Translations under genes and position numbers: made by a program
Assembly (NCBI GenBank): GCA_024654575.1
Contig: JANLHG010000005.1
Location: 65,260-129,259, forward strand
Length of the DNA: 64,000 bases
Direction of reading: 5' to 3'
Origin: Patescibacteria group bacterium
Lineage (GTDB): Bacteria; Patescibacteriota; Minisyncoccia; Phycocordibacterales; PALSA-1337
Shown here: in pieces, positions 2,731-32,237 of the stretch
Layout: each line of letters begins with the position of its first letter
Numbering within the stretch: position 1 is the stretch's first letter
Notes under the pieces: model-generated
Seen by the model: only the letters and a program-made list of their open reading frames with translations
What the model was told of the DNA's origin: nothing
The model's database searches: none

Positions 2731-2940
2731 GTTTTAATGGAACCGATGTTCCATAAGTAGTTTTTTCTGCCGACAACCGCCGGGAAGTAAGTCATACTCA
2801 GGACTTAATTGTTGTAATTGGAATTCATACTTTCATTCTTGCACATAATTCCACTAATTATACAAGAACTATCGCTGTTAATACCTATTGAATTTCAATA
2901 GATCAACCGGGACCCGCGAAACGATATATCCGATTCCACT
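2694..2940 (-). ncRNA. Candidate ~240-nt non-coding RNA between holB and frr (own promoter and terminator, no ORF)
   Basis: Near-consensus promoter TTGACA-16nt-TATACT (plus coords 2945..2972) right after holB stop; strong intrinsic terminator at 2694..2730; no ORF >=60 aa either strand; no recognisable tmRNA/RNase P/SRP motifs. Confidence 0.3.
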
Positions 2941-7082: not shown

Positions 7083-7148
7083 AGAAATATTATAACATAC
7101 TAATTTATGATAGCTGAAAACTCAAGTATGTTGTATATTATATTCATT

Positions 7149-7233
7149 GCCGGGATGGCGGAATTGGTAGACGCACACGACTCAAAATCGTGCGGAGTGA
7201 TCCATGAGAGTTCGATTCTCTCTCCCGGCACCA
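7149..7233 (+). tRNA. tRNA-Leu (anticodon CAA), long variable arm, encoded CCA
   Basis: Acceptor stem gccggga/tcccggc, anticodon loop ctCAAaa, long extra arm, T-arm gttcgattc, then a-cca. Confidence 0.85.
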
Positions 7234-7264
7234 ACGGTGGATTTTATGATATAATTAAAAAATA

Positions 7265-8341: not shown

Positions 8342-8362
8342 GTTAGAACATCTTTACAAATT

Positions 8363-9283
8363 ATGCAGAAACTCCTAGTAATACTCGGTCCTACAGCTTC
8401 AGGAAAATCGACACTCGCCGTGGAATTAGCAAAAAAACTAAATGGCCTGCATGCGCAGGCATGTGAAGTTATTTCTGCTGATTCTCGTCAGGTCTATAAA
8501 GGACTTGATATTGGTACTGGAAAAATTACTCAAAAAGAAATGGACGGGGTTGTTCATCATATGCTTGATGTAGAAAATCCAAAAAATCGTTTTGATATAA
8601 CAAAATACCAAAAACTCGCTAAACAAAAAATAGAAGAAATTTTATCTAGAGGACATCTCCCGATTATTTGTGGTGGTACTGGATTTTATATCAGCTCTAT
8701 TGTAAACAATCTTTCTTTTCCTCCTGTCCCACCAAATAAAAAACTTCGAGAAAAACTTTCTAAATATTCTACAGAAACACTTTTTGAAAAACTTGAAAAG
8801 TTAGACCCTGTTCGTGCTTCTTCAATTGATTCTAAAAATAAAATTCGCCTTATTCGGGCTTTAGAAATAATCCAATCTATCGGTAAAGTTCCTCAAAACT
8901 CAAACACCGAGTGTTTGAGTTTTGACACATTACAAATAGGTATTGAGACTTCCCCAGAAAAATTAAAGGAAAATATTAATAAAAGATTGATATCTAGGAT
9001 AAAAGTCGGAATGATTGAGGAAGCAGAAAAACTTCATAACCCACCAACGGGCAAAGGACTATCGTGGAAAAGAATGGAAGAGTTAGGTCTTGAATATCGT
9101 TATCTTGCCTATTATTTACAAAAAAAGATAACTAAAGAAGAAATGATAACCAAACTTCAGACAGAAATTTGGCATTATGCAAAACGTCAAATGACGTGGT
9201 TTAAAAAAGATAAAAGGATTAAGTGGTTTAAAATTGAGGAGAAAGATGATATTATCTTATTGTGTAAAAGGGCGATTAGTTAA
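8363..9283 (+). CDS. miaA: tRNA dimethylallyltransferase
   Basis: GPTASGKS P-loop, ISADSRQVYKGLDIGTGK, ICGGTGFY motifs. Confidence 0.85.
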   Translation: MQKLLVILGPTASGKSTLAVELAKKLNGLHAQACEVISADSRQVYKGLDIGTGKITQKEMDGVVHHMLDVENPKNRFDITKYQKLAKQKIEEILSRGHLPIICGGTGFYISSIVNNLSFPPVPPNKKLREKLSKYSTETLFEKLEKLDPVRASSIDSKNKIRLIRALEIIQSIGKVPQNSNTECLSFDTLQIGIETSPEKLKENINKRLISRIKVGMIEEAEKLHNPPTGKGLSWKRMEELGLEYRYLAYYLQKKITKEEMITKLQTEIWHYAKRQMTWFKKDKRIKWFKIEEKDDIILLCKRAIS

Positions 9284-9329
9284 GTGGTATAATAGACGTC
9301 TCCAAAACGTCGGTCGGGGGTTCGATTCC
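9259..9329 (+). tRNA. tRNA-Trp (anticodon CCA)
   Basis: gggcgat...atcgccc acceptor stem, anticodon loop ctCCAaa, gggggttcgattccctc T-arm; 5' 25 nt overlap the miaA stop region. Confidence 0.8.
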
Positions 9330-9330
9330 C

Positions 9331-10494
9331 TCATCGCCCGCCGTGAAATCTACTGGGGTCAGGCATGATTGATTTATAAAGTTCTATAAGTTTTTTCGCA
9401 ATAATATTACTTGAAAATTGTTTAGAGGTTTCCATAGCTCCAATAGACAAACTCTCACGAAGATTTTTATCTTTAAGTATCTGTCCTGCTTTTTCAATTG
9501 CTTCTGCTTGAGAAGTAACCAAAAAACCATTCTCACCATTTTTTATAATTTCTGGAGCGACACCAATTGGATACACGATAGGTACTAACCCTTGAGACAT
9601 TCCTTCTATCAAACTTAAAGAAAAACCTTCGTAACGTGATGGAATAAATAAAATACTTCCACGAAGTGGTCTAATCAACTCTGGTAGTTTATCCTTTCCA
9701 GTGTTAGAAAATACCGTACTATGAGAAATTTTTGTATGAAGCCATGTCGTCAGTTTTTGATTTTTCGTCATACAAAAAGTAATTTTTGGAACATTTGGAA
9801 AATGTTGATAAAAATTAATAAGACGATCTAACCCTTTAAGTTTTAAAGTAAAAGCATCCCCACCAAGACGTCCGAGAAAAACCAAACTTGGTTCTGGTGC
9901 GAAATCTTGCCCCGATGGTTCAAGCCAATAATCTTCTATAGCATTATGAATAAGCTGAATTTTTTCTTTTTTAACACCAGATGTAAGTAATTCAGTACGC
10001 ACATTTTCAGATGTAGCCACAACTGCAGTCGCACGAGATGCTACATATTCCTCTATATCAGCAATATCACGCATCGGTCTACGTGTTTTTATATTTAATT
10101 CACTTATAACACCATCTTTTTTTAATCTATACCAAATTTTTTTACATCCATTTTCTAATTTATTAGCCATCGGAGTTGAATTCAAAAATCCTCTTGTAGT
10201 AGAACCAAAATGACTAACTACAGGAACTGGATAGGCTAAAAAAGGTAAAGGTGTATAAGTAGTACCTTGAATAACATTGAATTTTAAAATTTCTCTTCGA
10301 CGTTCAAGTAATGAATAAAAAAATAAAATACTTTTGAGACCGCCTAAATGTACAGGTGTATCAACGAGAGATGTTTTTGGATAAAAATTTTTAATATCCA
10401 AACCAGAACCTTTTAACTTAAGAGACATCAAGTCGTTTATGTAATGTGCGCCTGTACCAAGTTTTTTTTCATTATGTATAAAGGCAATCTTCAT
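9331..10494 (-). CDS. Glycosyltransferase family 1 (GT4-like)
   Basis: C-terminal FIPSRYEGFSLSLIEGMSQGLVPIV...GENGFLV signature of GT-B family 1 glycosyltransferases. Confidence 0.7.
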   Translation of the reverse strand: MKIAFIHNEKKLGTGAHYINDLMSLKLKGSGLDIKNFYPKTSLVDTPVHLGGLKSILFFYSLLERRREILKFNVIQGTTYTPLPFLAYPVPVVSHFGSTTRGFLNSTPMANKLENGCKKIWYRLKKDGVISELNIKTRRPMRDIADIEEYVASRATAVVATSENVRTELLTSGVKKEKIQLIHNAIEDYWLEPSGQDFAPEPSLVFLGRLGGDAFTLKLKGLDRLINFYQHFPNVPKITFCMTKNQKLTTWLHTKISHSTVFSNTGKDKLPELIRPLRGSILFIPSRYEGFSLSLIEGMSQGLVPIVYPIGVAPEIIKNGENGFLVTSQAEAIEKAGQILKDKNLRESLSIGAMETSKQFSSNIIAKKLIELYKSIMPDPSRFHGGR

Positions 10495-17693: not shown

Positions 17694-18773
17694 TTATACA
17701 TGCTTTTTAACCACTTTGACAAGTTTGTCAATGTTTTTCTTAGTTGTGTCTCTACCTAAAGTAATCCTAATCGCATTTTTAGGATTACTATTCCCTATCG
17801 CTTTCAAAACGTAAGATTCGTTTTCATCCTTCAAACAAGAGCTTTTTGTGGAAACTGCAATACCTTCAGCATCAAGTTGTAAAGTTAAAAATTCTGTATC
17901 AATATTAGAAATAGAAATATTGATATTATTAGCTATTCTTTTTTTTCTGTCTCCATTTAACTTTGCTCCACATTCTTTTTCTAATTTTTGAATACAATAA
18001 TCTCGCAATTCGCAAAGTCGTGTTACTTCTTTTTGTTGTTCATTTTTTGCTAATTCAACAGCTTTTACAAAACCTTTTACTGCTGGCAGATTTTCTGTAC
18101 CCAATTTCAATTCTTTTTCCATTATCGTTCTTCTTTTTATGTAAAGCGCTCCAATTCCTTTTGGACCATAAACTTTATGACCGTCCATAGAAAGCATATC
18201 TACACCTAATTTATCTATATTAATATCTAAATATAGTAATGCTTGAGAAGCATCAGTGTGAAATAAAATTGATAAACCACTTTTACGAATTATGTGTGCG
18301 ATTTCTGAAATTGGCTGTATTGTTCCGATTTCATTATTGACAAGCATTATAGATATCAAGACAGTTTCTTTTTTAAGACTATCTTTTAATTCTTTCAAAT
18401 CAATAATTCCGTTTTCATCAACATTTACATACGTAACGCTTAATCCTCTTTTTTCTAATTCTTTAAATACTCTAAGAACTGACGAATGTTCTATAGTTGA
18501 AGTGATAGCGTGCTTTCCTTCCAATTTCATACCTAAAATAGCTAAATTATTAGCTTCTGTTCCATTACTCGTAAAAATTATCTCATCGGAATGAGCGTTA
18601 ATGGAAAAAGCCAAAGATTTTTTTGCTTCTTCTAGAGCTTTTTTAGCATTTACCCCTTCAGTATGAATTGATGAAGGATTTCCATATTCATATCCATAAT
18701 ACTTTACCATTTCCTTCAAAACTTCCTTTCTGGTGGGAGTAATGGATGCATTGTCTAAATATATCCTTTTCAT
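17694..18773 (-). CDS. Cysteine desulfurase (class V aminotransferase; IscS/NifS-like)
   Basis: YLDNASITP...; SMDGHKVYGPKGIGALYIKR PLP-lysine region; catalytic-Cys loop SSCL near C-term. Confidence 0.85.
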   Translation of the reverse strand: MKRIYLDNASITPTRKEVLKEMVKYYGYEYGNPSSIHTEGVNAKKALEEAKKSLAFSINAHSDEIIFTSNGTEANNLAILGMKLEGKHAITSTIEHSSVLRVFKELEKRGLSVTYVNVDENGIIDLKELKDSLKKETVLISIMLVNNEIGTIQPISEIAHIIRKSGLSILFHTDASQALLYLDINIDKLGVDMLSMDGHKVYGPKGIGALYIKRRTIMEKELKLGTENLPAVKGFVKAVELAKNEQQKEVTRLCELRDYCIQKLEKECGAKLNGDRKKRIANNINISISNIDTEFLTLQLDAEGIAVSTKSSCLKDENESYVLKAIGNSNPKNAIRITLGRDTTKKNIDKLVKVVKKHV

Positions 18774-18802
18774 TACTTATTATGATATACTATTTATTTA
18801 TA

Positions 18803-19290
18803 TGATGCATCTTATAGACACAATCACTAATCATGTGGGGATAATCCTCATATCCCTCATCATCCTGTTGATAACACTAGCTTTTTGGTTAATTTATCTA
18901 CAACTTAAAATAAATAAACTTCTACTTGGAACTGGCTCAAAAAACATAGGAGACTCCTTGGTACACATAGATAATAATTTAAAAGATGTAGCTAAGTTTA
19001 GAATTGAATTAGAAGAATATCTACGAACAGTAGAAAAAAGAGTGCGGAAAAGTACACAAGGTATTCATACTGTTCGTTTTAATCCATTCAAAGGTACAGG
19101 TGACGGAAGTAATCAAAGTTTTGCAACAGCTTTGATAAATCAAGAAGGAAATGGAGTTGTCTTTTCTAGTATTTATTCTAGAGACAGAGTAAGTGTCTTT
19201 TCTAAACCATTGATTGCTCATAAATCTGAATTTGAACTTTCTAAAGAAGAATTAGACGCTATTTCAGAAGCTGTAAAAAAATTACAATAA
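18803..19290 (+). CDS. DUF4446-like membrane protein
   Basis: N-terminal TM then RFNPFKGTGDGSNQSFATALINQEGNGVVFSSIYSRDRVSVFSKP pattern typical of DUF4446. ORF track starts at 18733, but that overlaps the divergent desulfurase start; ATG at 18803 is more likely. Confidence 0.45.
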
Positions 19291-19293
19291 ACT

Positions 19294-20808
19294 ATGGAAA
19301 AAACATCTTCAGCTCAAAATAATATTGGTATTTCGCGTCCTCCAATTGTCGTCATAATGGGACATATTGATCATGGAAAATCCACCTTACTTGATTACAT
19401 AAGAAAATCAAATACAACATCTGGTGAAGCAGGAGGTATTACGCAACACTTAGGAGCTTATGAAGTAACACAAGCAAGTAAAAAAATCACCTTTTTAGAC
19501 ACCCCCGGACATGAAGCATTTTGTGGAATTAGAACTAGAGGAGCAAATGTTGCTGATTTAGCTATTTTAGTTGTGTCAGCGGAAGATGGAGTCAAAACTC
19601 AAACACTTGAAGCATTACAATGTATCAAAAGTGCTGAACTTCCATATATTGTAGCTATAAATAAAATTGACAAACCAGAAGCCAATGTGGAAAGAATAAA
19701 ACAAAACTTAGCCGAGAACGAAATATATCTTGAAGGTTATGGAGGAGACATCCCGTATGTTCCAATATCAGCCATTACAGGTGATGGAATTCCAGAGCTT
19801 CTTGATACCATACTTCTTGTCGCAGAAATGGAAGAATTAAAAGCAGAACCAAATAAACCAGCAGAAGGTTTTGTTATAGAAGCTAACCTTGATAACAAAA
19901 AAGGAGTATCCGCCACCCTTCTCATAAAAAATGGCACAATTAAAACTGGAATGTACATAGTAATCGGTGATACTTTTTCTCCAATAAGAAATATTGAAGA
20001 TTTCCAAGGTAAAAAAATAAAGGAAGCGACATTTTCAAGTCCAGTCAAAATATTAGGATTTAATAAAGTTCCCGAAGTTGGTTCATCATTCGTAACTTGT
20101 AAAACAAAAAAGGAAGCTGAAAATTTGGCAGAAAAAAATAAAATTTCTGAAATATCATCAAAAAAAGTAACCACCTCCACCGAGGGATTCGGCGAGCCAA
20201 ACAGAATAATCATTCCCATAATTATAAAAACAGATGTTACTGGTAGTATGGAAGGAGTTAAACATGAACTTAACAAAATAAAACTTGAACGGGTTGCGAT
20301 TAAAATAATTCAAGAAGGCATAGGTGATATTACTGAAAATGATATAAAAATTGCGGATGGTATGAAAGATATAATCATAATAGGATTTAATGTGTCGGTT
20401 GATTCAAAAGCTAGAACTCTAGCAGAAAGATTGGGAGTGAGTATAGAAATATTTAAAGTAATTTATAAAATAAATGAATATGTTGAAAAAATTGCTTTAG
20501 GAAGAACACCTAAAATTAAAACTGAAGAAACTACTGGTACCGCTAAAATCATAAGAGTATTTAGTAAAAATAAAGATAAACAAATACTAGGTGGAAAAGT
20601 ACAAACAGGCATACTTAATGTAGGTTCAGAAGTTAAAATAATAAGAAGAGAAACGGAAATCGCAATAGGTAAAATACGAGAACTTCAATCTCAAAAATTA
20701 AGAGTTTCAGAAGTGAAAGAAGGATTTGAATTTGGAACAATGATTGAATCTAAAATAGAAATTATGCCCGGAGATAAAATTGAGGCCTTTAAGATAATTG
20801 AAAAATAA
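19294..20808 (+). CDS. infB: Translation initiation factor IF-2 (short form: G domain through C2)
   Basis: [29 protein letters not shown]-motifs; C-terminal beta-barrels; followed by rbfA. Confidence 0.85.
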
Positions 20809-20810
20809 TT

Positions 20811-21134
20811 ATGAAAGACATCAAAGGACTAAAAATAAAAGCTCAAATTCATGAACTTGCCTCAAAGTTTCTTCAACGAGAATCAAATCACCTCTCGCTT
20901 ATCACAGTCACGGATATTATGATAAGCAAAGATAGTAAACGAATGACTATCTTTTTTACTGTCCTTCCAGAAACAAAAGAAAAAGCAGCTTTAGATTTTA
21001 CAAAAAGAAAAAGAAGTGAATTTAGAGAATATGTTAAAAATAATTCACGAATGCAACGAATTCCCTTTTTTGATTTTGCCATAGATGGTGGTGAAAAAAA
21101 TCGACAAAAAATTGACGAGATAGCAAGATTGTAG
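20811..21134 (+). CDS. rbfA: Ribosome-binding factor A
   Basis: 107 aa; KH-like RbfA pattern; conserved infB-rbfA synteny. Confidence 0.75.
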   Translation: MKDIKGLKIKAQIHELASKFLQRESNHLSLITVTDIMISKDSKRMTIFFTVLPETKEKAALDFTKRKRSEFREYVKNNSRMQRIPFFDFAIDGGEKNRQKIDEIARL

Positions 21135-21177
21135 AATTTTGATAATATATTGAAAGGATCGTTGAAAGAGAAATATG

Positions 21178-21248
21178 GCCATGTAGACAAGTGGTAAGTC
21201 AGCAGTCTGCAAAACTGCTATACGCGAGTTCGATTCTCGCCATGGCCT
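21178..21248 (+). tRNA. tRNA-Cys (anticodon GCA)
   Basis: ggccatg.../catggcc acceptor stem, anticodon loop ctGCAaa. Confidence 0.85.
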
Positions 21249-21317
21249 CCCTAAAACAATTTGCTAGCAAATTGTTCGGGCGAATAATTCGTCCGAAAGA
21301 CGAATTGTTTTAGCCAA

Positions 21318-21402
21318 GCCCGAGTGGTGGAACTGGTATACACGCACGACTTAAAATCGTGTCTCGTAAGGGATGTGGGTTCGATTCCCACCTCGGGCAC
21401 CA
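21318..21402 (+). tRNA. tRNA-Leu (anticodon TAA), long variable arm, encoded CCA
   Basis: gcccgag.../ctcgggc-a-cca; anticodon loop ctTAAaa. Confidence 0.85.
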
Positions 21403-21433
21403 AAATAGAAAAAAGCATAATAATCTAATACAC

Positions 21434-21462
21434 TTGACACAAAGTCAAGATGGGTGTATACT
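21434..21462 (+). promoter_or_regulatory. Consensus sigma70 promoter TTGACA-17-TATACT
   Basis: cTTGACAcaaagtcaagatgggtgTATACTagag, just downstream of tRNA-Leu(TAA). Confidence 0.55.
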
Positions 21463-21507
21463 AGAGAATGGTAATAGAGTTCCTTGTCATCAACCAAAAA
21501 ACTAACT

Positions 21508-21696
21508 ATGAAGAAATGTCTTCTCATCGGAGGGGTTCTAGTTGTGCTTTTGGGAGCTTTGCTCCCAAAACTCACTGAGACTCCTACTCACCAACCTCAA
21601 TCCATCAACAAAACTAGCTCCTCTGTCTCGCCTGTTGCGAAAACAGAGAAAGTGTATCGCTTCCACCTTACGGGTGTTAAAGCGGTTGCAGAATAA
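21508..21696 (+). CDS. Small predicted secreted/membrane protein (62 aa, signal peptide), ~48% GC
   Basis: MKKCLLIGGVLVVLLGALLPKL...; compositionally atypical; unknown function. Confidence 0.35.
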   Translation: MKKCLLIGGVLVVLLGALLPKLTETPTHQPQSINKTSSSVSPVAKTEKVYRFHLTGVKAVAE

Positions 21697-21737
21697 ATAC
21701 GGAAAACAAACAGAAAATCAAGAAAGAAAAAAATAGA

Positions 21738-22817
21738 ATGAAAAAGTTAATTGCAGTACTTATCGGACTTCTTATCATCCCAGTGACATTCGCGCAGGCC
21801 GCGGATCAACTTCCGCCGACCTTGCCGATTGATTCGCCGGAAATGCTTATCGCCAACGCGAAACGGATGGTGACAAGCGTTTCGGTTTGGGTGAATTCTC
21901 AAGGGTTCATGCATGATGAAAGCACGGTCACCAGTTTCAACAAGCCGTACACGCCGTCGCTTGAAGGTCAGGCGGATTTCGCAGAAATTCTAAACATCGC
22001 CAGTTTGGCGGAGTTTAATTTCAAAACACGAAATCCGAAGGACTGGATATCACTTTCAGTCGCATTCCGCGGTGTCGTGGGAAATGAGTACGAAAAGCAG
22101 GAGATTGATCTTTTCAATGGCGGGACAGGGTTTAATCTGATTGAAAAGAATGGAACCTATTCTTTGCCGGAACCGCCATTCCTTGTGTCGGTTTATCCGA
22201 ACGGGCAGTTGCCACTTATCATTCCCGGTGCTAATGACGCTGAAGTTGCGTTTTTAGACCATCGTGGACAAACAGTGCAAACGGAATGGTTGGAACAGAT
22301 TGCTCCTGGAGTATTTTTGTTCAACCGCTACTGGGCGGGACAAAAAAATGTTCAGGTCATGGCCACAAGTTACGGCAACGATGGTCAGTCAAGCCGAGCA
22401 GTTTACAACGCTCTCACGGGAGAGCGCGAAGAAATTCGTCAAGCAAAATTGACAGCATCGGCGAGAATGGAAGAAATTGTTATTATCCCGACGGACCAGA
22501 ATACCGTCATGATAAATATGACAGACGCGCAGAGTGCGCGGTCGCTGAAAAATGGCGTGTCGCCACTCGTGCAGGTTCGGTTCACCGAGCCCAAAATGCT
22601 CGCCTTCTATGCAGAAGTCCAAGACGAAGTCGCGAATGGTTTTTGGATTCGGCGTGCCGACACAAATACCTGGGTATATTTTTCGATTACCCAGGGAGCA
22701 TTGGCTGAGGTTTCCGTTCCGGAAGCGGGTGTCTACGACATTGTGATTGACTGGCCGACATTTGGGAAGCAACAGCAGACCTTCGGGGACTACTGCTGTG
22801 GAGAAGGAAAAGGTTAG
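21738..22817 (+). CDS. Secreted hypothetical protein; compositionally foreign (about 55-60% GC body after an AT-rich signal-peptide region)
   Basis: 359 aa with Sec signal peptide (..VTFAQA|AD); GC jumps from about 35% to about 60% near nt 21790; several spurious overlapping ORFs in other frames, as expected for high-GC DNA. Confidence 0.65.
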   Translation: MKKLIAVLIGLLIIPVTFAQAADQLPPTLPIDSPEMLIANAKRMVTSVSVWVNSQGFMHDESTVTSFNKPYTPSLEGQADFAEILNIASLAEFNFKTRNPKDWISLSVAFRGVVGNEYEKQEIDLFNGGTGFNLIEKNGTYSLPEPPFLVSVYPNGQLPLIIPGANDAEVAFLDHRGQTVQTEWLEQIAPGVFLFNRYWAGQKNVQVMATSYGNDGQSSRAVYNALTGEREEIRQAKLTASARMEEIVIIPTDQNTVMINMTDAQSARSLKNGVSPLVQVRFTEPKMLAFYAEVQDEVANGFWIRRADTNTWVYFSITQGALAEVSVPEAGVYDIVIDWPTFGKQQQTFGDYCCGEGKG

Positions 22818-22952
22818 GTTTGGTTGATTAAACACAGAGGGCGCACTTGGATTTACAAATCCTTGTGCGCCTTTTCTTTTTGAAAATCAATTTGATATTC
22901 CTTTAAAAATCTGTTACATTTTATGTTGTTGCTCTAATAGATGTTATAAATT

Positions 22953-23025
22953 GCGCCTATAGCTCAGTTGGTAGAGCAACCGCCTCTTAAGCGGTGGGTC
23001 CATGGTTCGAATCCATGTGGGCGCA
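22953..23025 (+). tRNA. tRNA-Lys (anticodon CTT)
   Basis: gcgccta...tgggcgc-a; anticodon loop ctCTTaa; ggttcgaatcc T-loop. Confidence 0.85.
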
Positions 23026-23026
23026 C

Positions 23027-23076
23027 AGACTTTAAAAAAATATAAACTGCTTTATATTTTTTTAAAGTCTGTGCGA
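23027..23076. terminator. Long perfect palindrome (about 21-bp stem) after tRNA-Lys
   Basis: cagactttaaaaaaatataaa-ctg-ctttatatttttttaaagtctg. Confidence 0.5.
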
Positions 23077-23186
23077 AGCGCAGTGATGTTTTTGTTTGAG
23101 CGAAGCGAAAGGCAAAAACCACGAGCTGGGGTCGCGAGATTTTTTCGTCAGAAAAAATACTTGTGACCACCAGTTAAAAAATATAT

Positions 23187-23270
23187 GCCGGGGTGGCGAA
23201 ATGGCAGACGCACTTGCCTTAGGAGCAAGCGGAGTAATCCATGGAGGTTCGAGTCCTCTCCCCGGCACCA
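23187..23270 (+). tRNA. tRNA-Leu (anticodon TAG), long variable arm, encoded CCA
   Basis: gccgggg.../ccccggc-a-cca; anticodon loop ctTAGga. Confidence 0.85.
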
Positions 23271-23338
23271 GAAGTAACTTGTTCGGAATTAAGAATATTG
23301 ATAATTTGATAAATTTAAATTTTGGAAGAAAAAATAAC

Positions 23339-24382
23339 ATGAACCACCAAAAATCAGAACTTTATTTTTTACTTATTCTACTTTCAGGAATTTTTGTTCT
23401 TGCCTTTTTCATTTTTAAGCCATTTTTCTATGCGTTTATATTAGCAATAGTTTTTGCGACCGTTTTTGGACCATTGCACAAAAAAATACTCACTGTAACG
23501 CGAGAAAAAAGGGGTCTGGCGGCACTCCTCGCCACTCTCTCCGTTCTCGTCGTCGTTGTTGTACCCCTCGCGTTTTTAGGCATACAGATTTTTCAGGAAG
23601 CATCGGGAATCTACTCTTCTCTTGCACAAAACAGCGACGCAACTGATCTTTCTCGCAGTATAGGCGAATACTTACAGAACCTCACCAGATTTTCTCCTGT
23701 GCCGGTAGAGACCTCTTTTGATGTTAGTCAGTACTTAAAACAGGGATTAAGTTTGTTGCTCCAACATCTTGGTCCGCTCTTTGCGAATATTGTGCAAGCA
23801 ATGTTGAGTGTTTTTATATTCCTCGTCACTCTGTATTACTTGTTTAAGGATGGCCACAAACTGAAAAGAGTCGTCGTCACTTTAAGCCCCTTGCAAGATA
23901 TCCACGATGAAACAATTTTTAATAAACTTTCCTTGGCAATTAACTCGGTCATCAGGGGAAATCTTGTAGTGGCACTTGTCCAAGGAACATTAACCGCAAT
24001 CGGGTTTGCCATTTTCGGAATTCCCAATGCGGTGCTTTGGGGTAGTATTGCGACAATAACCGCGTTAATCCCCGGCATTGGAACAGCACTGGTACTCCTT
24101 CCAGCAATTCTCTACCTATACTTCAGCGGAGCGACGCTTTCCGCGGGCGGTCTTCTTCTTTGGGGGATGACGGCAGTGGGGCTCGTTGATAACTTTTTGG
24201 GGCCAAAGCTTATTGAACGAGGAATGCGGCTCCATCCATTTCTTATTCTTCTTTCTATCCTGGGTGGTATTGGATTTTTCGGGCCTCTTGGATTCCTACT
24301 GGGACCGCTTGTTCTTAGCTTGCTATTCGCTTTTCTTGAGATTTATTTTACGATTAGAAAAAATATAAGCGAAATGAATTGA
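23339..24382 (+). CDS. AI-2E family transporter (PerM/YdiK/UPF0118-like); internal segment about 58-63% GC
   Basis: 347 aa polytopic membrane protein matching AI-2E topology. ORF track start 23096 overlaps tRNA-Leu(TAG); ATG 23339 is used instead. GC about 30% for the first about 170 nt and last about 75 nt, about 60% between about 23505 and 24310. Confidence 0.7.
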   Translation: MNHQKSELYFLLILLSGIFVLAFFIFKPFFYAFILAIVFATVFGPLHKKILTVTREKRGLAALLATLSVLVVVVVPLAFLGIQIFQEASGIYSSLAQNSDATDLSRSIGEYLQNLTRFSPVPVETSFDVSQYLKQGLSLLLQHLGPLFANIVQAMLSVFIFLVTLYYLFKDGHKLKRVVVTLSPLQDIHDETIFNKLSLAINSVIRGNLVVALVQGTLTAIGFAIFGIPNAVLWGSIATITALIPGIGTALVLLPAILYLYFSGATLSAGGLLLWGMTAVGLVDNFLGPKLIERGMRLHPFLILLSILGGIGFFGPLGFLLGPLVLSLLFAFLEIYFTIRKNISEMN

Positions 24383-24431
24383 CTTATTTTTATATATGTG
24401 ATACTGTATCATCAGTAGTAGAAAGCACATT

Positions 24432-24776
24432 ATGAAAAAAATTCTAATCGTAGAAGATGACGGGCCTATCTTGAATATCCTTTCAGAACTTCTAAAAGCC
24501 ATTGGACATGAAATCCTGACCGCTGAAAACGCGGAAAAAGGATTGGAAGTGTTTCAAAATAACAAAGACATTGATGTTGTTTTAACAGACGATGCGATGC
24601 CTGTAGAGGGCGACGGGTGTAAACTCGTCGCAAAGATACGTCATCAACTCGGTTTTCAAGGAAAAATCATCATGATGTCTGGGACGATTTGCGAAGAAAT
24701 GGCTTTGACGGTAGGAGCTAACTGCTTCTTGTCAAAACCATTTCTGCCAAAAGAGATTTTTTCCGCAGTTCAATAA
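24432..24776 (+). CDS. Stand-alone response-regulator receiver (CheY-like) domain protein
   Basis: ILIVEDDGPIL...VVLTDDAMPVEGDG...KPF receiver-domain pattern (phospho-acceptor D in LTDDAMP). No output domain, no adjacent kinase. Confidence 0.7.
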   Translation: MKKILIVEDDGPILNILSELLKAIGHEILTAENAEKGLEVFQNNKDIDVVLTDDAMPVEGDGCKLVAKIRHQLGFQGKIIMMSGTICEEMALTVGANCFLSKPFLPKEIFSAVQ

Positions 24777-24798
24777 CATCCACCGATGAGGTGGAAAC

Positions 24799-24835
24799 CA
24801 AGCCAGTTCTCACGAACTGGCTTGACTTTATTTAG
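24799..24835 (+). terminator. Intrinsic terminator (10-bp stem) whose 3' arm overlaps the next promoter's -35 (cTTGACT)
   Basis: caagccagtt-ctcacg-aactggcttg + actttattt. Confidence 0.55.
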
Positions 24836-24899
24836 TATATGTGATAGTATATAAGAGAAGCAGATTTTTGACATAAACATACCAACAGAAGGAAAAAAA

Positions 24900-25613
24900 A
24901 TGAAAGTAAAAACATCGAAACAGGTGGCAACTCCTCCTCCACTGCCACCGACGCCAGTAAATATCCCTCAACAAACAGGATCACAAGGACAACAGTCATC
25001 ACCCCCGGCAAATTTAGTAAAAACATACAAACAGGAGATAGGTTTGAGCATCTTGATTCTCCTGTTGGCGTTCTGCTTCTTCTACTTCCTGTTACCTTGG
25101 ATGAAAAACAAGGGAACTTCGGCACTGCCAAAAGTATTAGAAGTGCAAGCTGGACAAAGTCCATTACCAGCACCTTCCACCGGTAGCAATGGAACAACTT
25201 ACTACATTGTGGACCCCAAAGTTCTCGCTGAATTGATTTCTACAAATGTTGCCGGGGGAATTCATATAACACAAATTGCGACACAAACTGTAGATGGACA
25301 AAGAGCAAATGGTAGCAATACCACCAATACTACTGCTCCATCGACAACAACAACCAATTCACAGCAAGTTGAAAAGCAACCTGTGAATGTAGAAATCCAT
25401 GAACTTGCAAATTGCGGATCATTCTATGAGTTTGAGGTTCCTGACGAACAAAATGTTCGTTGGGATCAAACTGAGGGAAGCAAGATGATCGTCTATGTAG
25501 ACGGCTTCACCTACACTGGAACAGCTACGGCATTCCAGACAGGCAAAAAAATTAAGTTCGTCTCGCAGACAACCTTCCCTTTTAAGATAAGGCTACGGTT
25601 CTACGAGAAATAG
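24900..25613 (+). CDS. Hypothetical membrane-anchored protein with proline-rich N-terminus and Thr/Asn-rich linker
   Basis: PPPLPPTPVNIPQ low-complexity, one TM (LSILILLLAFCFFYFLLPW), then extracytoplasmic domain; no recognised family. Confidence 0.45.
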   Translation: MKVKTSKQVATPPPLPPTPVNIPQQTGSQGQQSSPPANLVKTYKQEIGLSILILLLAFCFFYFLLPWMKNKGTSALPKVLEVQAGQSPLPAPSTGSNGTTYYIVDPKVLAELISTNVAGGIHITQIATQTVDGQRANGSNTTNTTAPSTTTTNSQQVEKQPVNVEIHELANCGSFYEFEVPDEQNVRWDQTEGSKMIVYVDGFTYTGTATAFQTGKKIKFVSQTTFPFKIRLRFYEK

Positions 25614-25751
25614 ATCTTCGCTCATTGCTATGAGCTCACGAAAGGGATTGACTTCGGTCTCTCCCTTTTTTTATTGACTTTTTTACAGATATACTGTATT
25701 ATATAAAGAGATCGATAAACACTTTGATCCTTGAAACCTTAAAATTTACCT

Positions 25752-26630
25752 ATGAAAGTTATTACAAATCTAGTGATATGGGCTTTTACTCTTATCCTAT
25801 TGTTAGCGCTCGAAAATCACATCCTCTGGCCAACCGCCAGTCCTGTGATTAGCATCGTTGTATTGATACTTATACTGTTTGCAACACGAAAGTGGTGGTT
25901 CGTACTTACCGAAGGTAATACGGGAGTTGTGTTATTTGATCCCATGTTCAATCATCTTTCTGAAATTTCAGGTGGGTTGAGTATGAAATTGCCATGGGAG
26001 AGTATATACAAAACCATAGATACTCGCAAGGATATCTTTACAATGAAACATTTAGACGGAGAAAACTATCCGACAGCCAATGGATTCTTGCTTGAAGTAA
26101 AATGGATTGTGGTAATTTCTCCAAATATTGGCCATTTAGTCAATTTTGTGAGATTTAAACCAGAAGATGCTCAAACGCAGGTCCGTGCTCGAGTCACTGC
26201 ATTTCTCAATGCATACATAAATCAACGTAGTGATAATGAAGTGATTGGTGGTATAAAAAAAAGGTCAGTGCCCGGATTTCATACTCTACGAAACGATTTT
26301 GAAAATTTATTTAATGGACAAAATCTCCACCAGATAGAAAAAGATTATGGCATTTGGACTGGCAAACCAGAGGTGTTTGATGTAGACCGCGATGCAGAAT
26401 CGCAAAAAACACGAGCAACTAAAGGAAAAGTAGAAGCTCTTAAAGAAGCAGCTGATTTTCTAGTAGAGAGTTCTAAAGTTAAAGGTAAACCAACACTAAC
26501 ATATAAGGAGGCATTAAAAATCGCCCAAACAGAACACGAGACAAGAAAAGCTGAGAGTATTGATTTGGATGTTTCAGGATTACCAGGTGGAATCCAATCA
26601 TTCATTGTACCAATGAAGGGAAAAACTTAA
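25752..26630 (+). CDS. SPFH/band-7 (prohibitin/stomatin-like) domain membrane protein, paralog 1
   Basis: N-terminal 2 TM; then VVLFDP..LPWESIYKTIDTRKDIF..YPTANGFLLEVKWIVVIS..VRF.PEDAQTQVRARVTAFL..SDNEVIGG, colinear with SPFH core, then alanine-rich coiled-coil tail. Confidence 0.5.
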   Translation: MKVITNLVIWAFTLILLLALENHILWPTASPVISIVVLILILFATRKWWFVLTEGNTGVVLFDPMFNHLSEISGGLSMKLPWESIYKTIDTRKDIFTMKHLDGENYPTANGFLLEVKWIVVISPNIGHLVNFVRFKPEDAQTQVRARVTAFLNAYINQRSDNEVIGGIKKRSVPGFHTLRNDFENLFNGQNLHQIEKDYGIWTGKPEVFDVDRDAESQKTRATKGKVEALKEAADFLVESSKVKGKPTLTYKEALKIAQTEHETRKAESIDLDVSGLPGGIQSFIVPMKGKT

Positions 26631-26720
26631 AAAACAAAGGGTAGACATTTATTTTTGATGTCTACCCTTTTATTGACACACACATAACTATATACTACTC
26701 TTTGAAATAGAAAGGTAAAC

Positions 26721-27581
26721 ATGAGACTACTAACAAACTTAATGATATGGATTCTGTCCTTTGTCATCACGGTATCTTTAGCTACTTTAATCATCCCCTC
26801 CGTTGGAGGGGCAATAATCGGTGCCATAATCTGGCTCATTGTCTTTAGCAAGACATTCAAACACTTCGTCGTGTCTGTTGGAAACAACGAGGGTTGGGTT
26901 ATTTTTGACCCACTCTTTAATATGCAACACGAACTCTCATCAGGATGGTGTTGTAAATTCTTTTGGGAAAAATTCTACGAAAAAATTGATATGAGGAAAA
27001 AAATACTTGTAGAAAATAACCCATGCGAAATATACCCAACCATCAACGGAGTAACCATTAAAATAAAATGGATAATACGCTTACAACCACTTAAAGGTTA
27101 CTTGATAAACTTCACTTCTTTTCATCAAAAAAATGTAGAAACTCAATTAAGATCAAAAATAAAAGCGTTTCTGAATGGTTATATTACCACTAGAAGTGAT
27201 GACGAAATTATTGGAGGAAAAAATAAAAATCCAAACAAAGGATTTGAAGAACTCCATAAGGCGTTCGAACTTTTATTTAATGAAAAAAAAATAAACGACT
27301 GGAAAAAGGAATGTGGTATTTGGACTGGTATACCGGACCTTTACGATGCTGATCGTGATGTTGAGGCACAAAAAGCATTGGCAACCAAGCAACTGGCGCT
27401 TGCTCTCGAGGAGACAGCTAAAGCTTTAGTAGAGGCATCTAAAGTAAACAACATTGCCACTATAACCTTTGAAAATGCTTTTGAAAAAGCAATGATTCTT
27501 AATAAATCCACAGCATCTTCAACGGTCAGGTATGAAGGATTACCGCAAGATGCAAAAACACTCATAGTTGGACAAAAATAA
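26721..27581 (+). CDS. SPFH/band-7 domain membrane protein, paralog 2
   Basis: Same architecture and conserved blocks as 25752..26630 (WVIFDPLFN, YPTINGVTIKIKWII, RSKIKAFLNGYITTRSDDEIIGG); own TTGACA promoter and terminator. Confidence 0.5.
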   Translation: MRLLTNLMIWILSFVITVSLATLIIPSVGGAIIGAIIWLIVFSKTFKHFVVSVGNNEGWVIFDPLFNMQHELSSGWCCKFFWEKFYEKIDMRKKILVENNPCEIYPTINGVTIKIKWIIRLQPLKGYLINFTSFHQKNVETQLRSKIKAFLNGYITTRSDDEIIGGKNKNPNKGFEELHKAFELLFNEKKINDWKKECGIWTGIPDLYDADRDVEAQKALATKQLALALEETAKALVEASKVNNIATITFENAFEKAMILNKSTASSTVRYEGLPQDAKTLIVGQK

Positions 27582-27641
27582 AGAAAAACAAAAAGGTGTC
27601 GCACAAAGCGACGCCTTTTATTTATCCCGCCTTGGCGGGAT

Positions 27642-27899
27642 TTATACCCCGATAGTTCCTTTAATTATATTAATTATCCCATAAGCACCAAACATAATAA
27701 CCATACCAACAAGTCCCCAGAGAATATGCTGACTACCTGTCACCCTAGCAGTCGGGTCATTTGATTTTACAAAATACTCAAAAACACCATAAAGAAAGAA
27801 AATGAGAGCTAAAGCAAACATCAAGCCAATTGCCGGATTGACTATGTAGTCAGCAATTTTTGTTAAAACTTGAGTAATAGCTGGATTTTCTTTAGACAC
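27642..27899 (-). CDS. Small 2-TM protein, paralog family member 1 (VirB2/TrbC-like topology)
   Basis: 85 aa; GTG start overlaps upstream TAG (TAGTG); shares ..hVxYh...(G/K)..h.WGhhGhhhhhu.WGLhN core with four neighbours. Confidence 0.45.
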   Translation of the reverse strand: MSKENPAITQVLTKIADYIVNPAIGLMFALALIFFLYGVFEYFVKSNDPTARVTGSQHILWGLVGMVIMFGAYGIINIIKGTIGV

Positions 27900-28279
27900 T
27901 AAATAGTTTGATTAATTCTTAATACATTAGGAATTTGATTTTGGTCAACAATATTATTCAAACCAAATGTTTGAACTAAGATATTTACCAATCCCCAAAT
28001 GGAAAGAATAACAAACAAACCTATCACTCCCCATTTTATATGGCTCTTACCAACTTCTTTATCATCTTCATTACCTGCAACTACATATTTTACGATTGCG
28101 TATATAAGCCAAACTACTGCAACAGAAATAAGTATAGGAATAATGGCGTTAAGAATAGTATTAACCTTTCCAAATAAACTATTTGCATCAAGAACACGAC
28201 TATAGGTAGGTACTACCTGTTGAGCGAAAGCTATGATAGGTAAAACAAACAAAGAAACTGCCGTGATTATTTTTTTCAT
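27899..28279 (-). CDS. Small secreted 2-TM protein, paralog 2 (VirB2/TrbC-like)
   Basis: 126 aa; Sec signal peptide MKKIITAVSLFVLPIIAFAQQ; ..AVVWLIYAIVKYVVAGNEDDKEVGKSHIKWGVIGLFVILSIWGLVNILVQTFGLNN. Confidence 0.45.
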   Translation of the reverse strand: MKKIITAVSLFVLPIIAFAQQVVPTYSRVLDANSLFGKVNTILNAIIPILISVAVVWLIYAIVKYVVAGNEDDKEVGKSHIKWGVIGLFVILSIWGLVNILVQTFGLNNIVDQNQIPNVLRINQTI

Positions 28280-28382
28280 TTTTATTTATCCCGCCTTGGC
28301 GAGATTGATTACTAATAATTAATAAATTACTTATTTTCATTATACCAACACCTAATTATATAACAATAGCGAGGTGTGGATA

Positions 28383-28823
28383 CTAAGGTCTATAAAAAGT
28401 ATCTTGAAGGTCAAGTTTGTAGCCACCTAAATTGTCAGGACTATTAACACCACCTGTTTGATTAAGTACAGAACTTGGACTATCAACACCACCTGTTTGA
28501 GTAAAATTACCTCCACAAGCCGATACACCACTCTGACTCCCTGGAGTTACTCCGGGTAATTGATTATTAAAACCAAATGTCTTCACAAGAACATTAACCA
28601 AACCCCACACAGAAAACATGACAAAAAGACCGATAATACCCCACAAAATAAGACTTCGTGCTTCCTCTTTTTTTTCCTGCACAAAAATATATTTAACAAT
28701 ACCAAAAATAAATACCACTAAAGCCACAGAAAAAAGAAGTGGGATGGTATAACCAAGATAGGTATTTACGAGACACATGACATCTTTGAGAGTACTAAGT
28801 TGTGGTGTGGCGACATTATTCAT
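28383..28823 (-). CDS. Small 2-TM protein, paralog 3, with Gly/Ser-rich C-terminal tail
   Basis: 146 aa; ..FSVALVVFIFGIVKYIF....EARSLILWGIIGLFVMFSVWGLVNVLVKTFGFNN then GVTPGSQSG..TGGV repeats. Confidence 0.45.
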   Translation of the reverse strand: MNNVATPQLSTLKDVMCLVNTYLGYTIPLLFSVALVVFIFGIVKYIFVQEKKEEARSLILWGIIGLFVMFSVWGLVNVLVKTFGFNNQLPGVTPGSQSGVSACGGNFTQTGGVDSPSSVLNQTGGVNSPDNLGGYKLDLQDTFYRP

Positions 28824-28834
28824 ATTTTTTATAA

Positions 28835-29098
28835 TTAACCTTTAATTTGTTTAATTGTAGCATCTATTACTCCAGCGATCACTGAAGCTCCTAAAAGCAC
28901 GGCAGTGCCGACCACTGTCCATAAAAATGTACTCTTTGCATCTGTCAGTTTTTTTGGATCGCCTCGAGCAGTCACAAAAAGAAAACCAGAGTATATAATA
29001 AATACTACTGCCACAGGCAAACCAATTTGAAGAACCAAACCTAGTATTGAATTAATAAGTTCACTAATCGTTTTTACTTGAAGAGGGTTTTCAATCAT
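28835..29098 (-). CDS. Small 2-TM protein, paralog 4
   Basis: 87 aa; LPVAVVFIIYSGFLFVTARGDPKKLTDAKSTFLWTVVGTAVLLGASVIAGVI. Confidence 0.45.
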   Translation of the reverse strand: MIENPLQVKTISELINSILGLVLQIGLPVAVVFIIYSGFLFVTARGDPKKLTDAKSTFLWTVVGTAVLLGASVIAGVIDATIKQIKG

Positions 29099-29505
29099 TG
29101 TTTCTCTATATTATAGTATTTTTCTGGTTCTTTTAAAAGTGCCCCAGTGATAGTATGCACAATAAGCCAAGCAGAAAACATTAGAATAAGTCCTACGACG
29201 ACTATTCTAAAAATTTTATGAGCTTGAGCTAATTTTCCAGTATCTCCTGATGCTGTCATATATAAAAATCCAGCATAAGCAAAGGATACAGTAGCAAGTG
29301 GAACCGCCAAGTAAATTATAAACTGAATAAGGCCGTTTATCCCATTAATGAGGTCATTAAAACCACAATCTGTATCACAAGGGATCAATCCTCCATCGCC
29401 GAACGGGGCAAAACCAGGGCCTAGGACGTATAAAATTAAAGTAAACATAAAATTATTGTGTAATAAGATTATTAATTTGATTTGAACCCCGTGTAATGGC
29501 CTCAC
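29095..29505 (-). CDS. Small 2-TM protein, paralog 5 (start probably at internal Met, about 29448)
   Basis: AVPLATVSFAYAGFLYMTASGDTGKLAQAHKIFRIVVVGLILMFSAWLIVHTI; the 5' 53 nt of the ORF-track model overlaps the upstream substrate-binding protein gene, so a shorter model is likely. Confidence 0.4.
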   Translation of the reverse strand: MRPLHGVQIKLIILLHNNFMFTLILYVLGPGFAPFGDGGLIPCDTDCGFNDLINGINGLIQFIIYLAVPLATVSFAYAGFLYMTASGDTGKLAQAHKIFRIVVVGLILMFSAWLIVHTITGALLKEPEKYYNIEKQ

Positions 29506-31610: not shown

Positions 31611-31901
31611 CTAAAATATTGCCATTTTTAATCCTAAACCACCTACAACTTTCTTCAAAAAAGATAATGTAGGATTTGCCCGTCCAGCTTCAAAACGAGC
31701 TAATACCGATTGTGCAATACCAATACGTTCTGCAAGTTCTCTTTGAGTCAAACCCTGTTTTCCTCGTGCTTTAATAATAGCTCTAATAATACTGAATTCG
31801 AATTCAAGATCTTCATAAGCCTTTTTAAATCCAGGCTTTTTCATAAGATCTTTATGAATCTCGTCAAAGGGAATAAGTTTTATATTATCTTTAGTTTTCA
31901 T
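31611..31901 (-). CDS. higA: HTH XRE-family antitoxin (HigA-like)
   Basis: GLTQRELAERIGIAQSVLARFEAGRANPTLSFLKKV: cro/C1 HTH; directly downstream of HigB-like toxin. Confidence 0.65.
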   Translation of the reverse strand: MKTKDNIKLIPFDEIHKDLMKKPGFKKAYEDLEFEFSIIRAIIKARGKQGLTQRELAERIGIAQSVLARFEAGRANPTLSFLKKVVGGLGLKMAIF

Positions 31902-31925: not shown

Positions 31926-32237
31926 TCAAGAATGCAAGAGTTTTAAGCGATTTCGGGTGGTACTCAAATCTTTGAGTTTTAACTTTTGAGTTTTTTTATT
32001 AATAGCATGCAGTAAAACTATCTGATCTTCATAAAAAGTGTAGAAAATTCTAATATTTTGAAAACTTGAAATTCTTAGTTCATAAAGATTCTTTTCAATC
32101 TTTTTACTATATGGCATTGATAAATGGTATTCTTCAATAGATAAAAGTTTTATAGTGCTAGAAACTTTTGCACTTACCATATCCTCTAGAGAATTGAAAA
32201 ACAATTTAATATCGGGGTGGAAATAAAAAACTTTCAT
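31926..32237 (-). CDS. higB: RelE/ParE-superfamily toxin, HigB/Gp49-like
   Basis: 103 aa; ..NLYELRISSFQNIRIFYTFYEDQIVLLHAINKKTQK.. pattern of HigB/phage Gp49 family; toxin upstream of HTH antitoxin. Confidence 0.6.
   Translation of the reverse strand: MKVFYFHPDIKLFFNSLEDMVSAKVSSTIKLLSIEEYHLSMPYSKKIEKNLYELRISSFQNIRIFYTFYEDQIVLLHAINKKTQKLKLKDLSTTRNRLKLLHS

Follow-up and report, generated by a model that had tools for sequence, protein, structure and literature searches.

We analyzed a 64,000-nucleotide (nt) stretch of DNA (the window) that is part of a 129.5-kb contig in a Patescibacteria metagenome-assembled genome (MAG; locus tags NUV47_*), and focused on a native cluster of four transfer RNA (tRNA) genes. 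Spacers of this cluster hold two whole genes or cassettes of foreign codon composition and patescibacterial affinity, a secreted-protein cassette (insertion 1) and a gene for an AI-2E/PerM-family transporter (insertion 2), whose breakpoints can be located by comparison with relatives. We consider it likely, with a probability of about 0.8, that both were inserted by ordinary horizontal transfer after this lineage split from its sister genomes. A preliminary description of the locus had proposed instead that the interiors of two resident genes were replaced in frame by DNA rich in guanine plus cytosine (GC), or that the locus is an assembly chimera.

Sister genomes and the tRNA cluster

Loci of relatives were numbered L001 upward, and L141 (GCA_964359745.1), L142 and L143 are the sister genomes of the window. 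They were reached through a search with a rare 292-amino-acid (aa) protein encoded at 25752-26630, which has two homologs. IF2 was also tried as a route to close relatives in the metagenome collection; its best match was 57% identical, and it served for synteny and not for mapping insertions. The three sister loci share 78-86% nt identity with the window and are collinear with it over 14.0-35.2 kb outside four stretches that are extra in the window, at 21251-21317, ~21406-22885, 23027-23184 and 23269-24378. The common gene order runs through ClpB, a protease, an aminotransferase, DUF4446, IF2 and RbfA to the tRNA cluster, and continues with a response regulator, three membrane proteins, type IV secretion system (T4SS) pilins, a solute-binding protein, a methyltransferase and GyrA. 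The features of the cluster and its inserts are listed below, with GC at third codon positions given as GC3 and open reading frames as ORFs.

21177..21250, + strand: tRNA-Cys(GCA), native, first of the conserved four-tRNA cluster downstream of infB-rbfA (ARAGORN, Rfam)
21251..21317, + strand: window-specific 67-nt spacer with nested hairpins, from tRNA-Cys to tRNA-Leu(TAA) (fold -25.4 kcal/mol, z -5.6)
21318..21402, + strand: tRNA-Leu(TAA), native, 96.6% identical to L141 (ARAGORN, alignment); insertion 1 begins at its 3' end
~21406..22885, + strand: insertion 1, ~1.48 kb, ~49% GC, a self-contained transcription unit absent from L141/L142 (GC3 0.41, 0.53)
21434-21462, + strand: predicted sigma-70-like promoter of insertion 1 (11/12 consensus positions)
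21484-21696, + strand: 70-aa membrane-anchored ORF (GC3 0.41)
21738-22817, + strand: 359-aa secreted beta-sandwich protein (GC3 0.53; gene 49% GC)
~22836-22882, + strand: terminator hairpin of insertion 1 (fold -25.1 kcal/mol, z -7.8)
22886..22952, + strand: native Leu(TAA)-Lys spacer, kept to the right of insertion 1 (aligns with L141 ~8150-8210 and L143 ~7150-7215)
22953..23026, + strand: tRNA-Lys(CTT), native (ARAGORN, Rfam, sister alignment)
23027..23184, + strand: window-specific 160-nt spacer (17-19 nt in L141-L143; fold -35.1 kcal/mol, z -8.7)
23187..23270, + strand: tRNA-Leu(TAG), body identical to the sisters, acceptor stem with compensatory changes, CCA encoded
23268..23298, + strand: 3' trailer motif GCACCAGAAGTAACTTGTTCGGAATTAAGAAT, absent from the sisters; the distant L121 has it after tRNA-Leu(TAG), and L029/L030 have it immediately upstream of AI-2E
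23305..23340, + strand: donor-gene remnant, the last 10 codons and stop (FDKFKFWKKK*) of a 69-75 aa gene with two transmembrane (TM) segments (94-97% identity to L145/L146/L009)
23339..24382, + strand: AI-2E/PerM-family transporter gene, insertion 2 (PF01594; missing from L141-L143)
24379..24776, + strand: native promoter (TTGACTT..TGTGATACT) and stand-alone response-regulator receiver gene (24432-24776; PF00072; promoter aligns with L141 from 8390 onward)

An Rfam scan of 20.8-28.5 kb gave nothing above threshold beyond the four tRNAs. At 23022-23075 there is a perfect 25-bp palindrome with a 4-nt loop, rich in adenine plus thymine (AT), which is window-specific and begins within the last 5 nt of tRNA-Lys.

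tRNA-Cys(GCA) keeps its syntenic position in L141-L143 and in many relatives that are more distant, and in L141 and L142 all four tRNAs are packed into 390 bp. The spacer equivalent to 21251-21317 is 0 nt long in these two genomes, and their Leu(TAA)-Lys spacer is 62 nt long, without insertion 1. L143 has an HNH gene at the first of these positions and different cargo at the point of insertion 1. In the sisters, 6 nt separate the 3' end of tRNA-Leu(TAG) from the -35 box (TTGACT) that serves the response regulator. Homologs of AI-2E or of the secreted protein were not found in the L141-L143 loci, and none of the island genes was found in 80 more distant infB loci, which retain the tRNA cluster and the pilin synteny. 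Since the cassette and the AI-2E gene are missing from the sisters, both insertions are specific to the lineage of the window.

The same pattern could in principle arise if the cassettes were ancestral and had been precisely lost in the sisters, with their GC excess due to selection, for example if the codons of expressed membrane or secreted proteins had adapted. Consistent with this, the block downstream of the cluster is GC3-rich in all three sisters, and AI-2E is nearly ubiquitous in Patescibacteria, with a strongly conserved protein. However, two exact deletions restoring the compact cluster would be needed in L141/L142 and in L143, which has other cargo at the same point. The window also holds a fragment of a donor-context gene, the AI-2E codons are unsaturated relative to distant lineages while control genes are saturated, and AI-2E, which elsewhere tracks the GC of its host, departs from it here (values are given below). 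We regard an ancestral origin followed by loss as improbable.

A metagenome assembly chimera would require that segments of a co-occurring Patescibacterium of ~45% GC were mis-joined at conserved tRNA genes. Such genes could bridge assembly graphs, the composition changes abruptly, and the exact AI-2E and secreted proteins are found on one contig only in the public collection. Nevertheless, four separate mis-joins would have to be assumed. The right junctions lie at the native spacer 22886-22952 and, at 24379, at the promoter of the response regulator, for both of which only the sisters have homologous sequence, and the left junctions are beside the tRNAs rather than within them. Between the two inserts lie tRNA-Lys and the tRNA-Leu(TAG) body, both of them native. 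In addition, the right junction of AI-2E is inside an ORF that remains unbroken, its terminal codons being new and its stop falling within the native -35 box, and intergenic GC is equal in the island (0.33) and the host (0.31). Since the junctions fall in non-coding DNA that is specific to the lineage, rather than in conserved repeats, we consider a chimera very improbable.

Breakpoints, composition and the mosaic question

The ORF at 23339-24382 had been called an AI-2E transporter, an assignment that PF01594 confirmed with 176.9 bits (cut-off 34.3), aligning residues 12-336 to positions 5-326 of the 327 in the model. Its scores against the YtvI, YdiK and PRK12287 subfamilies of NCBIfam (103, 89 and 51 bits) are below the cut-offs of 198, 305 and 318, and NCBIfam places it in no characterized equivalog (YtvI, YdiK, TqsA-like). 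By its sequence, the protein is predicted to be a PerM-type permease. DNA homologous to its orthologs spans 23305-24361, and the final 7 codons (24362-24382) have no homology to them. Nucleotide identity to the closest ortholog, L145 (85% aa identity), is 0.41 at 23271-23304, rises to 0.94 at 23305-23338 and 0.95 at 23339-23420, remains at 0.77-0.91 in the core and 0.76 at 24311-24361, and falls to 0.29 at 24362-24382. The breakpoints of insertion 2 thus lie at 23304/5 and 24361/2, 34 nt before the start codon and 21 nt before the stop codon. No drop in identity occurs at 23505 or 24310, where junctions had previously been placed. The TGA stop codon overlaps the -35 box of the downstream response-regulator promoter.

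The donor-gene remnant at 23305-23340 has only 15% GC and is preceded by stop codons. In the closest orthologs (L145, L146, L009, L010, L025 and L007), the AI-2E ATG follows 1 nt after the end of the 69-75 aa two-TM gene. The FDKFKFWKKK* remnant is a direct footprint of excision from the donor context. The two-TM gene is found at L145 2368-2595, L146 4790-4999, L009 7790-7999, L010 356-565, L025 3380-3592 and L007 586-825, and its protein follows the pattern …LTPLTPGSWLxIIGLELLGxRILFxDKFKFWKKK*. A further ORF of 66-74 aa is present upstream of it in the closest orthologs. The two-TM gene is degenerate in L002, L006 and L024, and in other genomes a P-type ATPase is directly upstream of AI-2E in its place.

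The preliminary description had also reported a GC-elevated island, which is real but weaker than it had claimed. The whole window has 33.9% GC and the background 33%, rather than ~30%; 21430-25700 has 43.2%, versus 32.7% and 33.3% in its flanks, and outside 21100-26700 the 800-nt windows reach at most 40.7%. The AI-2E core (23505-24310), given as 58-63% GC, has 46.4% (39-56% in 100-nt windows), and the secreted gene past 21790, given as 55-62%, has 49.9% (100-nt maximum 54%). The anomaly does not end at 25700 but runs to ~27.6 kb. On the other hand, the ORFs at 21738-22817 and 23339-24382 both exist, and the ends of AI-2E are indeed AT-rich, with 31.1% GC at 23339-23505 and 27.4% at 24310-24382.

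Codon composition sets the region apart more clearly. The GC3 values of seven consecutive + strand ORFs at 21484-27581 are 0.41, 0.53, 0.41, 0.39, 0.39, 0.29 and 0.33, compared to 0.200±0.033 (maximum 0.271) for the 60 other ORFs of the window, with z-scores of 2.8 to 9.9 overall and 6.3-9.9 for the inserted genes. A tetranucleotide comparison, which had been suggested earlier, was run as well: the distance to the host was matched by 0/140 host windows for insertion 1, 3/141 for AI-2E and 0/136 for an older downstream block described below, so that all three are outlying. The claim that foreign, GC-richer DNA lies inside the tRNA cluster is thus supported by GC3, by tetranucleotides and by the sister comparison.

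The proposal of an in-frame mosaic goes further, and holds that the interiors of resident AT-rich genes were replaced through homologous recombination with a high-GC donor, for example the host of an epibiont. AT-rich ends and a GC-richer core do exist in AI-2E, and a residual GC3 contrast between them (p=0.004) is above that of most orthologs. However, the sisters have no resident gene at either site, which indicates that whole genes were inserted and not interiors only, and the core is at 46% GC and not at ~60%. Amino acids alone predict most of the GC profile: the GC of 30-codon blocks correlates with that expected from the amino acids with r=0.96-0.97, and at codon positions 1-2 codons 56-324 reach a GC of 0.47, compared to 0.34 for codons 1-55 and 0.26 for codons 325-347. 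The AT-rich parts encode a Lys/Ile/Leu signal peptide in the secreted protein, Phe/Ile/Leu/Lys-rich first helices and a similar C-terminal tail. In 42 AI-2E orthologs, the ends are likewise below the core in GC, by 0.079 on average, so the pattern was inherited with the gene.

Alignments of the AI-2E gene also indicate a single origin. The protein is conserved over its full length, including the AT-rich N-terminus, and identity to L145, L146, L006, L009 and L002 is high and flat over 23305-24361. It had been suggested that ends and core might have best matches in different phyla, and that shared best matches would weaken the mosaic idea; the top-ranking orthologs are the same for the N-terminal end and for the core. 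Since the AT-rich 5' end is as close to L145 (95% identical) as the core is, one origin can be assigned to both. The AT-rich ends and GC-rich core are largely set by amino acids and are not a recombination mosaic, and we consider interior replacement hardly credible.

In the secreted-protein gene of insertion 1, the composition switch near 21790, taken earlier for a junction, coincides with the signal peptide: codons 1-18 have 35% GC, versus 38% expected from their amino acids, and GC3 is unchanged (7/18 in codons 1-18 versus 182/341 in the remainder, p=0.33). The Taylorbacteria ortholog shows the same GC step at its signal peptide. The secreted protein gave 14 matches including itself, of which the best other is 63% identical and belongs to a Taylorbacteria genome of ~45% GC that also has a small upstream ORF; the pair of 70-aa and secreted ORFs is kept in this Taylorbacteria genome (L003-L005). 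A structure model with a predicted local distance difference test score (pLDDT) of 86 comprises several beta-sandwich domains after the signal peptide, and no structural relative specific to this model was found. One might guess from the model that the protein has a surface or binding role.

Origin, insertion and possible mobility of the inserted genes

The named homologs of both proteins are all patescibacterial, with full-length matches, which is at odds with a high-GC host as donor. AI-2E had more than 1,700 matches, the best 120 of which are 69-85% identical and nearly all full length; identities of 66-81% were found in loci titled Tagabacteria, Uhrbacteria, Taylorbacteria, Jorgensenbacteria, Nomurabacteria, Moraniibacteriota and others. 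Donor-like loci have 40-45% GC, and those of the closest AI-2E orthologs have 40-42%, with genes of 44-46%. The difference in GC between the AI-2E gene and its flanks is mostly within ±0.05 (32 loci, r=0.65) and is +0.10 in the window; these values ruled out that AI-2E invariably exceeds its host in GC.

Where the window AI-2E and its orthologs (from loci titled Tagabacteria, Taylorbacteria, Uhrbacteria and Jorgensenbacteria, and other Parcubacteria-type MAGs) have the same amino acid, they also share the codon at a fraction of 0.59-0.70 of positions, versus 0.37 expected from synonymous shuffling (z 8-12). For the control genes RmuC, YqeY, ParB, MiaA and ClpB of the same genomes, codons are saturated (z -1.0 to 1.6). 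A universal codon constraint was also considered as the cause of the excess and was rejected, since codons are saturated in L028 (74% aa identity) and in L036 (60%). The excess in AI-2E, together with the saturated controls, implies that the AI-2E DNA is far more recent than the genomes in which it is found and was therefore transferred within the phylum. From these comparisons, AI-2E appears to have been transferred within Patescibacteria, and both inserts probably stem from moderately GC-richer members of this group. An AI-2E gene of patescibacterial type (49-70% identity, several beside tRNAs) is also present on L025, L032, L033, L040, L043, L045 and L060, from MAGs titled Deltaproteobacteria, Bdellovibrionales, Gammaproteobacteria, Desulfobacterales or Nitrospirae. 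These occurrences could reflect mis-binning or transfer beyond the phylum.

The tRNA cluster has received other cargo as well. In the same spacers, L143 has an HNH gene, an ORF with a SET domain and a 125-nt element between two copies of a 9-nt sequence, and L061, L066 and L069 also have variable inserts in the cluster. The different cargo in L143 and the variable inserts in distant relatives identify the cluster as an insertion hotspot. Within L143 (5970-7342), the HNH gene lies between tRNA-Cys and tRNA-Leu, and the 125-nt element is a GC-rich hairpin flanked by duplicated GCGTCCATA, which is the tRNA-Lys 5' end.

The insertions may have arisen through uptake of foreign DNA followed by illegitimate recombination, or by recombination anchored on the conserved tRNA genes. 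Insertion 1 lies directly 3' of tRNA-Leu(TAA) as a complete promoter-to-terminator unit. AI-2E lies between tRNA-Leu(TAG) and the response-regulator promoter and carries along 34 nt of the donor upstream gene, and its final 7 codons are new sequence running into the -35 box of the next promoter. The inserts may have been kept as the tRNA operon supplies transcription, and their composition may be drifting slowly toward that of the AT-rich host. Three observations hint weakly at the mechanism: a TTGATAA duplication at the left AI-2E junction (23298-23311), the trailer motif and the AI-2E genes adjacent to tRNAs elsewhere. Behind tRNA-Leu(TAG), the 31-nt trailer matches that of L121 (8835-8867) at 97% identity, and it may be a recombination or element-end footprint. 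The motif (G)TAGTAACTTGTTYGGAATTAAGA(AT) is also found before AI-2E at 7981-8000 in L029/L030 and at ~2910-2935 (- strand) in L068, after a tRNA-like fragment near tRNA-Tyr; it had no match in viral contigs.

Several observations weigh against two recent insertions, or are not accounted for by them. Scans against Pfam, PHROGs and NCBIfam found no integrase or transposase among the island ORFs, and none of the 18 direct-repeat families at 20800-28500 is a repeat of a tRNA 3' end resembling the left and right attachment sites (attL/attR) of an integrated element. An integrase-mediated insertion is therefore not supported by the present structure, although three traits of integrase islands are seen, namely a site at a tRNA 3' end, atypical composition and absence from close relatives. 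The GC-normalized dinucleotide signatures of the inserts are not outlying. After amino-acid control, GC3 is 0.27 in the ends of AI-2E and 0.45 in the core (synonymous-shuffle p=0.004), a contrast of 0.18, compared to 0.045±0.065 in the orthologs, that is not fully explained. It is possible that the less constrained tail drifted faster to host composition, or that weak mRNA structure was selected at the 5' end. Finally, with the exact proteins on one contig, the junctions are without independent assembly support, and loss from the sisters is a less parsimonious alternative to gain.

AI-2E genes are associated with tRNAs more widely. A same-strand tRNA is present within 350 nt upstream of AI-2E in 11/40 loci, versus 18/385 for the other ORFs of the same loci (p=1.3e-5, odds ratio 7.7), and at least nine tRNA species are involved. 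It is possible, though rather doubtful, that AI-2E and its small upstream two-TM gene are unusually mobile in Patescibacteria and have repeatedly landed downstream of many tRNAs, the window representing one event with both breakpoints visible. This could occur through tRNA-anchored recombination of DNA that was taken up, or because promoterless inserts survive only at sites transcribed from a tRNA operon. A literature search found nothing specific on AI-2E in Patescibacteria or on tRNA islands in the candidate phyla radiation (CPR).

AI-2E is found 5-350 nt downstream of a tRNA in L002, L008, L011, L013, L023, L024, L026, L034, L035, L039, L040, L045 and the window (23187-23339), with upstream tRNAs that include Ala-GGC/TGC/CGC, Ser-GGA, Thr-CGT, Pro-CGG/TGG, Lys-TTT and Leu-CAA/GAG/TAG. 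The tRNA-Leu(GAG) of L035 lies on the other strand and is outside the 11/40. The gap between tRNA and AI-2E is 5-37 nt in several loci, which leaves no space for a promoter. L039 (6873-9897) has the order parB, tRNA-Leu(CAA), AI-2E, miaA, tRNA-Trp; the same frame in the window at 6114-9342 has a VKOR-family gene (7265-8341) downstream of tRNA-Leu(CAA), and is another variable slot. AI-2E and a VKOR gene are adjacent in L015.

The older downstream block and known systems

The compositional anomaly continues beyond insertion 2 into a block at 24379-27640 that is also present in the sisters (L141 8390-12190; L143 7524-12170). There its GC3 is 0.35-0.50, versus 0.19-0.25 in the neighboring genes; in the window it is slightly lower, and the sisters have an additional 85-aa pilin-like ORF. 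Because the block is common to the sisters and GC3-rich there, it is older than the recent insertions, and it was probably acquired by the common ancestor of the window and the sisters. It begins with the response-regulator promoter (repeat D3), and the GC3 of the response-regulator gene is 0.39 in the window, 0.42 in L141 and 0.38 in L143. The block also includes the following genes.

24900..25613, + strand: 237-aa membrane protein, homologous to L141 from window position 25027, no family match in Pfam, PHROGs or NCBIfam
25752-26630 and 26721-27581, + strand: tandem paralogs of 292 and 286 aa, 38% identical, a lineage-restricted membrane family found in L141-L144

The C-terminal part of the 237-aa protein is conserved in the sisters, and its low-complexity N-terminal part is variable. 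The paralogs, with which the GC3-elevated block closes, have GC3 values of 0.29 and 0.33 in the window and 0.36-0.38 in the sisters, and gave no match in Pfam, PHROGs or NCBIfam. A search of 5.8 billion proteins for the 292-aa family returned three proteins including the query, i.e., the two homologs elsewhere. SPFH/Band-7 genes occupy the syntenic position in distant relatives. That the paralogs are divergent SPFH/Band-7 proteins was considered and rejected: BLASTP gave E=0.007 over 69 residues only and hhalign a probability of 5.9%, and the AlphaFold model (pLDDT 44) was unusable.

A T4SS-pilin gene array (PF18895) occupies the minus strand at 27899-29505, and near-identical 30-nt hairpins (TTTTATTTATCCCGCCTTGGCGGGATTTAT) are located at 27616-27645 and 28280-28309, beside successive pilin genes. 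Between the methyltransferase gene and gyrA, the window has an insertion of ~1 kb relative to L141/L143 (31276-32252), of host-like composition, that contains a Gp49/HigB-like toxin gene (31926-32237, PF05973), an ORF resembling an XRE-type helix-turn-helix antitoxin (31611-31901) and an 83-aa membrane ORF. Downstream of gyrA, L143 has SocA/Panacea, reverse-transcriptase and bAvd genes (18006-20069) that resemble parts of a diversity-generating retroelement.

We suggest that the annotation of the locus show a native tRNA cluster, two recent insertions from within the phylum and an older shared block, and that the host-to-epibiont in-frame mosaic be dropped for it. In the genes for membrane and secreted proteins of AT-rich genomes, GC heterogeneity would then be mostly an amino-acid effect, and comparison with sister genomes can resolve questions of mosaic or chimera without reads. 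The locus suggests that Patescibacteria exchange single genes among themselves at tRNA-cluster hotspots, and the unsaturated synonymous sites and tRNA adjacency of AI-2E are relevant to gene flow and natural transformation in CPR bacteria.

Mosaic genes formed by intragenic recombination include the pbp genes of Streptococcus or Neisseria. AI-2E of the window resembles these in showing compositional heterogeneity within an intact ORF, but no change of nearest relative from segment to segment was found, and the heterogeneity is predicted by the amino acids and shared by the orthologs. Within its own family (PF01594; PerM, TqsA/YdgG, YdiK, YtvI), the protein has a full-length Pfam match. It differs from the characterized members in its scores under the NCBIfam cut-offs and in belonging to a patescibacterial clade with 70-85% identity across lineages.

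Homology-facilitated illegitimate recombination reportedly follows natural transformation in some bacteria, and natural competence is said to occur in Saccharibacteria. In agreement with such a process, one side of each insert adjoins a conserved tRNA gene, a possible anchor, and the other junction is in unrelated DNA, even inside an ORF; the TTGATAA duplication and the trailer common with a distant genome also fit. In contrast, the tRNA body in the window is of the native type, and no donor with contiguous tRNA-Leu(TAG), trailer and AI-2E was found.

tRNA genes are reportedly used as integration sites, and acquired genes are said to drift in composition toward their host (amelioration). As in tRNA-associated islands, genes of foreign composition lie 3' of tRNAs in the window, are absent from close relatives, and have a counterpart in a relative with other cargo at the same site. 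Unlike such islands, the window has neither an integrase nor att direct repeats, and its inserts, of 1.1-1.5 kb, each amount to a single gene or one small operon and are located within the spacers of a tRNA cluster rather than at one tRNA. The result is incremental, and adds a further example of small horizontally acquired inserts at a tRNA hotspot rather than a new kind of system.

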